Shown one piece after another: positions 56,313 through 56,714 of a stretch of DNA of 64,000 bases. The notes beneath the pieces are model-generated. The model was not told the origin of the DNA. It made no database searches and saw only the letters and a program-made list of their open reading frames with translations. This stretch comes from Escherichia coli (lineage in GTDB: Bacteria > Pseudomonadota > Gammaproteobacteria > Enterobacterales > Enterobacteriaceae), in assembly GCF_030384885.1 (NCBI RefSeq), contig NZ_CP128613.1. One strand, 5' to 3'. The translations under genes and the position numbers were made by a program. Within the stretch, counting starts at the first letter, position 1, and each line of letters starts with the position of its first letter.

Positions 56313-56426
56313 TATCCGCGATCGCGGATAACACAGTGTTTATCCCGTAGAGCGGATAAGATGTGTTTCCTGATTGACTTTATCCCCACTAAAGGATAAA
56401 ACTGATAATATCCCCTTGAGCGGATA
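56313..56426. promoter_or_regulatory. hipBA promoter with four HipB operators TATCC-N8-GGATA (56313-56330, 56341-56358, 56381-56398, 56409-56426)
   Basis: Four copies of the inverted repeat read directly from the sequence; matches the classical hipBA operator arrangement. Confidence 0.85.
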
Positions 56427-56447
56427 AATATGCTGTGGACGTATGAC

Positions 56448-56714
56448 ATGATGAGCTTTCAGAAGATCTATAGCCCAACGCAATTAGCGAATGCAATGAA
56501 ACTGGTTCGTCAGCAAAATGGCTGGACGCAGAGCGAGCTGGCGAAAAAAATCGGTATTAAGCAGGCGACAATTTCCAATTTCGAAAACAATCCTGACAAT
56601 ACCACGCTCACGACATTTTTTAAGATTTTACAGTCGCTTGAACTCTCAATGACGCTATGCGACACGAAAAATGCCTCGCCAGAATCAACAGAACAGCAAG
56701 ATCTGGAGTGGTAA
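56448..56714 (+). CDS. hipB: Antitoxin/transcriptional repressor HipB (Xre-type HTH), 88 aa
   Basis: MMSFQKIYSPTQLANAMKLVRQQNGWTQSELAKKIGIKQATISNFENNPDN... Confidence 0.9.
   Translation: MMSFQKIYSPTQLANAMKLVRQQNGWTQSELAKKIGIKQATISNFENNPDNTTLTTFFKILQSLELSMTLCDTKNASPESTEQQDLEW

Follow-up and report, generated by a model that had tools for sequence, protein, structure and literature searches.

The locus described here is almost certainly an intact, wild-type copy of the canonical hipBA operon, a chromosomal type II toxin-antitoxin module of Escherichia coli, and is found within a 64,000-nucleotide stretch of E. coli DNA that was analysed as a whole and is called the window below. Judged on the nucleotide and protein sequences, the locus displays every feature of the HipBA family that can be tested at this level, and the possibility that hipBA is a pseudogene was considered and rejected. 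The initial annotation had placed the locus at 56313-56714, a range that takes in the operators and hipB but leaves out hipA, which extends to 58036 (Table 1). The hipBA locus itself, the type of prophage found next to it and the integration of such prophages at dif are all already known, and the significance of the result beyond a correct annotation is small: hipBA is the founding persistence locus, and the copy in the window is an intact wild-type natural allele in the standard position.

Table 1. Features of the hipBA region and of the adjoining prophage (positions in the window; a dot means that no strand applies).
Feature	Position	Strand	Basis
Terminator-like hairpin	56242..56269	+	terminator scan; sequence conserved in K-12
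HipB operator 1 (most 5'), TATCCGCGATCGCGGATA	56313..56330	.	exact consensus; identical to K-12; half-sites invariant in 6 strains
HipB operator 2, TATCCCGTAGAGCGGATA	56341..56358	.	exact consensus match; K-12 and 6-strain comparison
TTGACT, -35-like hexamer (candidate only)	56374..56379	+	direct reading; between operators 2 and 3
HipB operator 3, TATCCCCACTAAAGGATA	56381..56398	.	exact consensus match; K-12 and 6-strain comparison
HipB operator 4 (closest to hipB), TATCCCCTTGAGCGGATA	56409..56426	.	exact consensus; K-12 and 6-strain comparison
hipB, 88-aa Xre/Cro-type HTH antitoxin and autorepressor	56448..56714	+	Pfam, NCBIfam, K-12 alignment
hipA, 440-aa Ser/Thr kinase toxin	56714..58036	+	Pfam, PDB chains, K-12 alignment
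Long imperfect hairpin: GC-rich stem (inner part 58142-58181) between two inverted dif-like sites	58111..58207	.	RNA folds
Hybrid dif-like junction (attL): XerC arm GGTGCGCATAA, spacer TGTCAACGCG, XerD-like arm TTATGTTGAAA	58113..58144	+	homology end, relatives
Prophage cargo/regulatory genes, convergent on hipA	58211..59917	-	profile searches; annotation of 99.5%-identical relative
STM4504/CBY_0614 family protein (AbiJ_NTD4 + DUF7014)	58211-59140	-	
Two small cargo ORFs	59224-59793 and 59735-59917	-	
Filamentous prophage core, running past the window end	60045..64000	+	PHROGs; relatives' annotation

Operators and promoter region

The motif TATCCNNNNNNNNGGATA has exactly four exact matches in the 64-kb window and all of them lie within 114 bp on the 5' side of hipB (56313-56426), for a chance expectation of 0.04 per window; among 100 dinucleotide-preserving shuffles, none gave four matches. 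The four TATCC-N8-GGATA operators announced upstream of hipB in the initial annotation are indeed present, and TATCCN8GGATA is the documented HipB operator consensus, with four operators (PMC3376134, PMC3920265). Their centre-to-centre spacing is 28, 40 and 28 bp. The alignment with K-12 MG1655 gave the same letters at 8 of the 8 half-sites, and in a comparison of six diverse E. coli strains (the window strain, K-12, 042, SC487, PK8276 and UPEC957C) the TATCC and GGATA half-sites were invariant, the changes being restricted to the N8 spacers and to the inter-operator DNA. This cross-strain comparison separates the tolerated variation, which affects the spacers, the inter-operator distance and an upstream indel, from what is not tolerated, namely changes in the TATCC/GGATA half-sites.

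Several differences from K-12 were observed around the operators. A 13-bp segment located 5' of the first operator in K-12 is absent from the window (56295/56296, against L003:2294-2306 (-) in the K-12 record); it is present in K-12, SC487 and PK8276 and absent in three of the six strains, with a similar gap in 042 and UPEC957C. Between TTGAC and operator 3 the window has one additional T, also found in 042 and UPEC957C, so that the centres of operators 2 and 3 are 40 bp apart, against 39 bp in K-12. The TATAAT located between operators 3 and 4 in K-12 reads GATAAT in the window, the latter form being found in four of the six strains compared, and single spacer changes occur in operators 3 and 4. 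On the basis of this comparison, the indel of 13 bp, the inserted T and GATAAT are polymorphisms common to other natural strains. The 13-bp segment of K-12 contains CATCAACGCCTTA, a match to the IHF consensus with one mismatch, and no match at one mismatch or fewer was found in the hip upstream region of the window. An IHF site upstream of hip is mentioned in PMC3376134, for which CATCAACGCCTTA of K-12 is a candidate only. Since the segment carrying this consensus match is missing, the upstream regulation of hip may differ slightly between the window allele and K-12.

A simple sigma-70 promoter scan of 56150-58350 gave 0 sites past the threshold, and the -35 and -10 hexamers were therefore left without assignment. 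From the TTGACT hexamer at 56374, TAAAAC (56397) is located 17 nt and GATAAT (56404) 24 nt in the 3' direction; with 24 nt between them, TTGACT and GATAAT were rejected as a canonical promoter pair. Just 3' of the autotransporter gene, which stops at 56233, the terminator-like hairpin at 56242-56269 separates hipBA from upstream transcription. No Rfam match was obtained at E up to 0.1 in a scan of 55500-60500.

The hipB and hipA genes and their products

The TAA of hipB (56712-56714) and the ATG of hipA (56714-56716) overlap by one base in TAATG (56712-56716), exactly as stated in the initial annotation. The HipB protein matches Pfam HTH_3 at 4.9e-15 and, over its full length (1-88), the NCBIfam HipB equivalog NF007271 at 184.5 bits for a cut-off of 79. 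It is identical to its K-12 counterpart at 86 of 88 residues (98%), and the two substitutions, A73T and N85D, both fall in the disordered 16-residue C-terminal tail, whose terminal Trp88 is retained. This disordered tail is described as the Lon degradation signal of HipB, with a conserved terminal Trp88 (PMC3376134).

In HipA, the N-terminal Couple_hipA domain (PF13657, 95.9 bits) and the HipA_C kinase domain (PF07804, 176.5 bits) were both recognised by Pfam, and the PDB HipA chains 2wiu, 3dnt and 3tpd match residues 1-440 with E of approximately 1e-292. The protein is identical to that of K-12 at 428 of 440 positions (97%), the substitutions being S35N, R84K, I104L, D107N, V110I, H112R, K119Q, T343A, R382K, S424T, G431R and S439I. 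Residues 120-342 are the same as in K-12 without any change, and this block spans S150, the Gly-rich loop 151-156, D291, D309 and D332, where D309 and D332 reportedly have catalytic roles. The roles of Ser150 and of the Gly-rich loop in the regulation of HipA are described in PMC10627512. Outside the block, G22, P86 and D88 are also retained in the alignment, in agreement with the initial annotation as regards a wild-type Gly22. The alignment with K-12 that had been proposed there as a check was run, and the identity of hipBA was upheld, with no mutation in the operator half-sites or in the catalytic residues. A separate observation concerns the distribution of the substitutions, 5 of the 12 being clustered within 16 consecutive residues of the N-terminal domain (residues 104-119, approximately 57023-57070 in the window).

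A high-persistence (hipA7-like) allele, or one functionally altered in another way, could be suspected from these 12 HipA changes with their cluster, from the position of both HipB changes in the Lon-degron tail, and from the fact that only 30 of approximately 5400 records are at least 99% identical to the hipBA region at the DNA level. However, P86 and D88, at which P86L and D88N are said to be clinical high-persister variants, are wild type. The same is true of G22 and D291, the two hipA7 positions (G22S, D291A; PMC3376134), so that a hipA7-type allele (G22S with D291A, or P86L or D88N) was rejected, all four positions being wild type. In addition, HipB keeps W88, and the HipB of strain 2013C-4282, whose sequence is 100% identical (WP_001296726.1), is also annotated in 042, SC487 and Res13-Lact-PEB17-18; according to these records, it is a common natural allele and K-12 is the variant. 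An altered allele is thus extremely improbable, and the wild-type operon is the reading retained below.

The toxicity of HipA, the phosphorylation of GltX, and the neutralisation and operon repression by HipB would follow from the 97-98% identity to the K-12 proteins. The mechanism proposed here is likewise taken from work on K-12, the window itself offering the intact genes, the operators and the overlap; the four-operator consensus, the degradation of HipB by Lon and the Ser150 regulation are documented (PMC3376134, PMC3920265, PMC10627512). HipB dimers would bind cooperatively to the four TATCC-N8-GGATA operators, which would flank or overlap the promoter, and would shut off the operon with HipA as co-repressor, while the one-base TAATG overlap would couple the translation of hipA to that of hipB. 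HipA would be held inactive by HipB in a HipA2HipB2 complex, and Lon would degrade free HipB via its disordered C-terminal tail. Free HipA could then phosphorylate glutamyl-tRNA synthetase, leading to stalled translation and to dormant drug-tolerant persister cells, and the autophosphorylation of Ser150 would eject the Gly-rich loop and switch the HipA kinase off.

Genomic position and distribution

The 1.9-kb hipBA region has a match in 5420 of 5426 complete E. coli genomes, and in 4564 of these 5420 the coverage is at least 80% of its length, mostly with 95-99% identity. At the identical sequence of strain 2013C-4282, hipB and hipA are annotated by PGAP. The flanking genes are the standard ones (lsr operon, ECSE_1600-family autotransporter, hipB, hipA, dif), and the order autotransporter, hipB, hipA, dif is also that of K-12. 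Directly 5' of hipBA, the autotransporter gene (50765-56233, plus strand) is intact and encodes 1822 aa, whereas its K-12 counterpart, yneO (b4696), is annotated as a pseudogene. In two O157:H7 strains, G5295 and AC-3, the match begins at query base 735-738 (approximately 56970 in the window) and, judged on its extent, omits hipB, the operators and approximately the first 85 hipA codons; the remainder bears the annotation of a HipA-family toxin gene.

Stop codon included, hipA runs to 58036, and GGTGCGCATAA, which is the XerC arm of dif, begins 77 nt further on, at 58113. The distance of 77 bp to the dif-derived junction that was given in the initial annotation is therefore correct, although it is no peculiarity of this strain, since the hipA-dif distance is also 77 nt in K-12 (L003, with dif running to 478 and hipA from 555). 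The same distance in K-12 implies that the adjacency is a species-wide feature and was not created by the prophage; it is passed on to any element that integrates at dif. On the far side of dif, the gene content varies among strains: PK8276 has a site-specific integrase gene (L008:2415-2503), UPEC957C an acetylxylan esterase gene (L009:2300-2433), and 2013C-4282 a block in which an MbcA/ParS/Xre antitoxin gene and an ankyrin-repeat gene are found (L001:21916-28018). The sequence past dif has the appearance of a general variable region.

The proximity of the prophage raises the question of whether hipBA could be a phage-borne toxin-antitoxin cargo and not a chromosomal locus, the more so as it adjoins a prophage whose attL slot bears accessory genes that vary, one strain having a Doc toxin there. 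This reading is refuted, and we give it no probability at all. Relative to the junction, the operon is on the chromosomal side, within a homology to phage-free genomes that runs unbroken from the autotransporter through hipA to 58126; strain 2013C-4282 carries the identical hipBA allele with an intact dif and no phage; and the 5420 genomes with hipBA stand against approximately 427 with the phage junction. Uninterrupted chromosomal homology, the phage-free strain and these genome counts all assign hipBA to the chromosome.

The prophage junction and the hairpin

Homology with phage-free E. coli extends as far as 58126 and includes GGTGCGCATAATGT, after which CAACGCG-TTATGTTGAAA follows, so that the spacer between the XerC-like and XerD-like arms of the hybrid junction is 10 nt and not 6. 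Allowing 3 mismatches, a search of the window for an intact dif gave nothing, and a search for the XerD arm, TTATGTTAAAT, gave nothing with 1 mismatch allowed. Since the window ends inside the prophage, the second prophage end was examined in a relative, the O20:H12 strain Res13-Lact-PEB17-18, whose prophage is 99.5% identical and which has one complete prophage copy followed by a second copy, seemingly partly deleted. The phage-phage junction of this relative carries the same GGTGCGCATAATGTCAACGCG... sequence as the hipA-side junction, from which it follows that the phage itself carries the XerC arm and that the crossover cannot be placed within those 14 nt. The intact dif, GGTGCGCATAATGTATATTATGTTAAAT, is found in the relative only at the distal, yneL-side end of the prophage (L004:2601-2628); from this relative, we infer that the prophage of the window strain likewise has an intact dif at its distal end.

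The hipA-side junction is therefore probably a static hybrid site, and probably inactive. Because the site with the 10-nt spacer is the one near hipA and the intact dif is distal, any later Xer recombination would be expected to take place distally and not beside hipA, by analogy with what is described for CTXphi and YpfPhi (PMC4266046). The idea put forward in the initial annotation, that prophage integration or excision occurs right next to a persistence module, is qualified by this expectation, the junction itself being located 77 nt from hipA. In lysogenic strains (approximately 8% of complete E. coli genomes), the insertion of the prophage puts approximately 8.5 kb or more between hipA and the active dif, and brings a convergent, defence-like cargo operon together with the phage hairpin to the 3' end of hipA.

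The junction is part of the long imperfect hairpin of 58111-58207, whose architecture is that of a CTXphi-type attP(+), and in which the two dif-like sites are, on the plus strand, GGTGCGCATAA-TGTCAACGCG-TTATGTTGAAA and, on the minus strand, GGTTCGCACAA-TGACG-TTATGCTAAA. The sequence of this hairpin is identical at the phage-phage junction of the tandem lysogen (L002:16589-16670). On each strand the stem stands between an A-tract and a T-tract (plus, GAAAAGGCCGCTGCG...CGCAGCGGCCTCTTT; minus, ...GGCCTTTTC), which makes it plausible that the 58142-58181 hairpin acts as a terminator on both strands. This hairpin was not flagged by the terminator scan, probably due to the loop-length and T-count rules of the scan.

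These structures bear on a possible effect of the prophage on hipBA expression, by antisense read-through from the cargo (59917 to 58211, minus strand) or by a new 3' end of the hipA mRNA, which would shift the HipA:HipB balance and the formation of persisters. The initial annotation had suggested such read-through from a cargo operon convergent on hipA, and the orientation is correct, with the cargo stop at 58211 only 175 nt from the hipA stop; moreover, the native sequence 3' of dif has been replaced by the insertion, and any effect would count at the population level given that the hipA-junction-hairpin sequence is present in 427 of 5426 complete E. coli genomes (approximately 8%). However, the very stable 58142-58181 hairpin is interposed between hipA and the cargo, approximately 30 nt past the cargo stop. 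The 116-nt minus-strand segment folds at -52.9 kcal/mol (z = -7.95), the plus strand makes the same stem, and the minus strand, with an A-tract before the stem and UUUUC after it, has the layout of a bidirectional terminator. In addition, the 76 nt between hipA and dif are unaltered by the insertion. With a terminator-like hairpin on both strands between the cargo and hipA, read-through into hipA would be geometrically possible but unlikely, and altered hipBA expression as a whole appears very unlikely. A leaky hairpin or an altered hipA mRNA 3' end, through which lysogeny would tune the HipA:HipB balance and the persister frequency, is highly improbable; if true, such tuning would link a phage to antibiotic tolerance. 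The retained reading is that of a wild-type hipBA operon next to, and separate from, the prophage.

The filamentous prophage and its cargo

According to its gene content, to the matching strains and to the description in the literature, the DNA located 3' of 58126 belongs to a filamentous prophage that resembles CUS-1 and YpfPhi and is of the CTXphi type as regards integration, and the window strain is accordingly an E. coli lysogenic for a dif-integrating filamentous phage. The core genes encode a RepII/X replication protein, a DNA-binding protein, the major coat protein, a G3P-like attachment protein, a minor protein and the start of Zot/pI, with PHROGs matches for the replication protein, the major coat protein, the attachment protein and pI/Zot. 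No annotated integrase is found in the full prophage of the 99.5%-identical relative, and we infer from the architecture of the site and from the literature that the integration would be catalysed by the host XerC/XerD. A search of a phage collection with the prophage DNA gave no match. The strains matching the prophage include UM146 and F11, which we take to be extraintestinal pathogenic E. coli.

The attL cargo slot (58127-59950) varies among prophages that are approximately 98% identical, other strains having in this place a PD-(D/E)XK nuclease, a Doc (death-on-curing) toxin, a CxxCx(11)CxxC 'mobilome' protein or hypothetical proteins. The slot resembles a hot spot for defence or accessory genes of the filamentous phage. 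In the window, the STM4504/CBY_0614 cargo protein has a weak PADLOC match to the candidate defence family PDC-S32. The junction query also gave 479 plasmid matches, one of which was inspected: plasmid pZJ3920-1 (L005:3001-4013) bears a 93%-identical copy of the hairpin beside an STM4504/CBY_0614-family gene, likened to the cargo by its family name, together with IS200C and ISNCY fragments. This case suggests that a module made of the hairpin and the STM4504/CBY_0614 gene travels outside the phage context.

Comparison with known systems

The prophage can be compared, by published description, with CUS-1 of E. coli O18:K1:H7 and YpfPhi of Yersinia pestis. For these phages, integration at dif, the restoration of an intact dif at one end, CTXphi-like inverted XerC/XerD sites, tandem copies and variable ORFs adjacent to attL have been reported (PMC4266046), and for YpfPhi new copies were reported to integrate between resident copies (PMC4266046). 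The window prophage has in common with them an inovirus gene set without annotated integrase, the integration at dif, the inverted XerC/XerD-like sites and the variable attL ORFs, and the relative shows in addition the intact dif restored at one end and the tandem copies; the window prophage differs by its attL cargo, the STM4504/CBY_0614 (AbiJ_NTD4 + DUF7014) gene. The attP(+) of CTXphi from Vibrio cholerae also consists of two inverted dif-like sites folding into a hairpin, and has likewise a non-canonical hybrid junction at one end of the integrated phage with an intact dif at the other, seen here in the relative. CTXphi is nevertheless another phage of another host, and the Xer dependence and the irreversibility would apply to the window prophage by analogy.

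For the operon itself, the reference is the hipBA of K-12 (hipB b1508, hipA b1507). The gene order and the one-base TAATG overlap are the same in the window and in K-12, where the end of hipB and the start of hipA share a single record coordinate, 1592176. The half-sites of the four operators are also those of K-12, and the catalytic and regulatory residues are all kept in the proteins encoded in the window.
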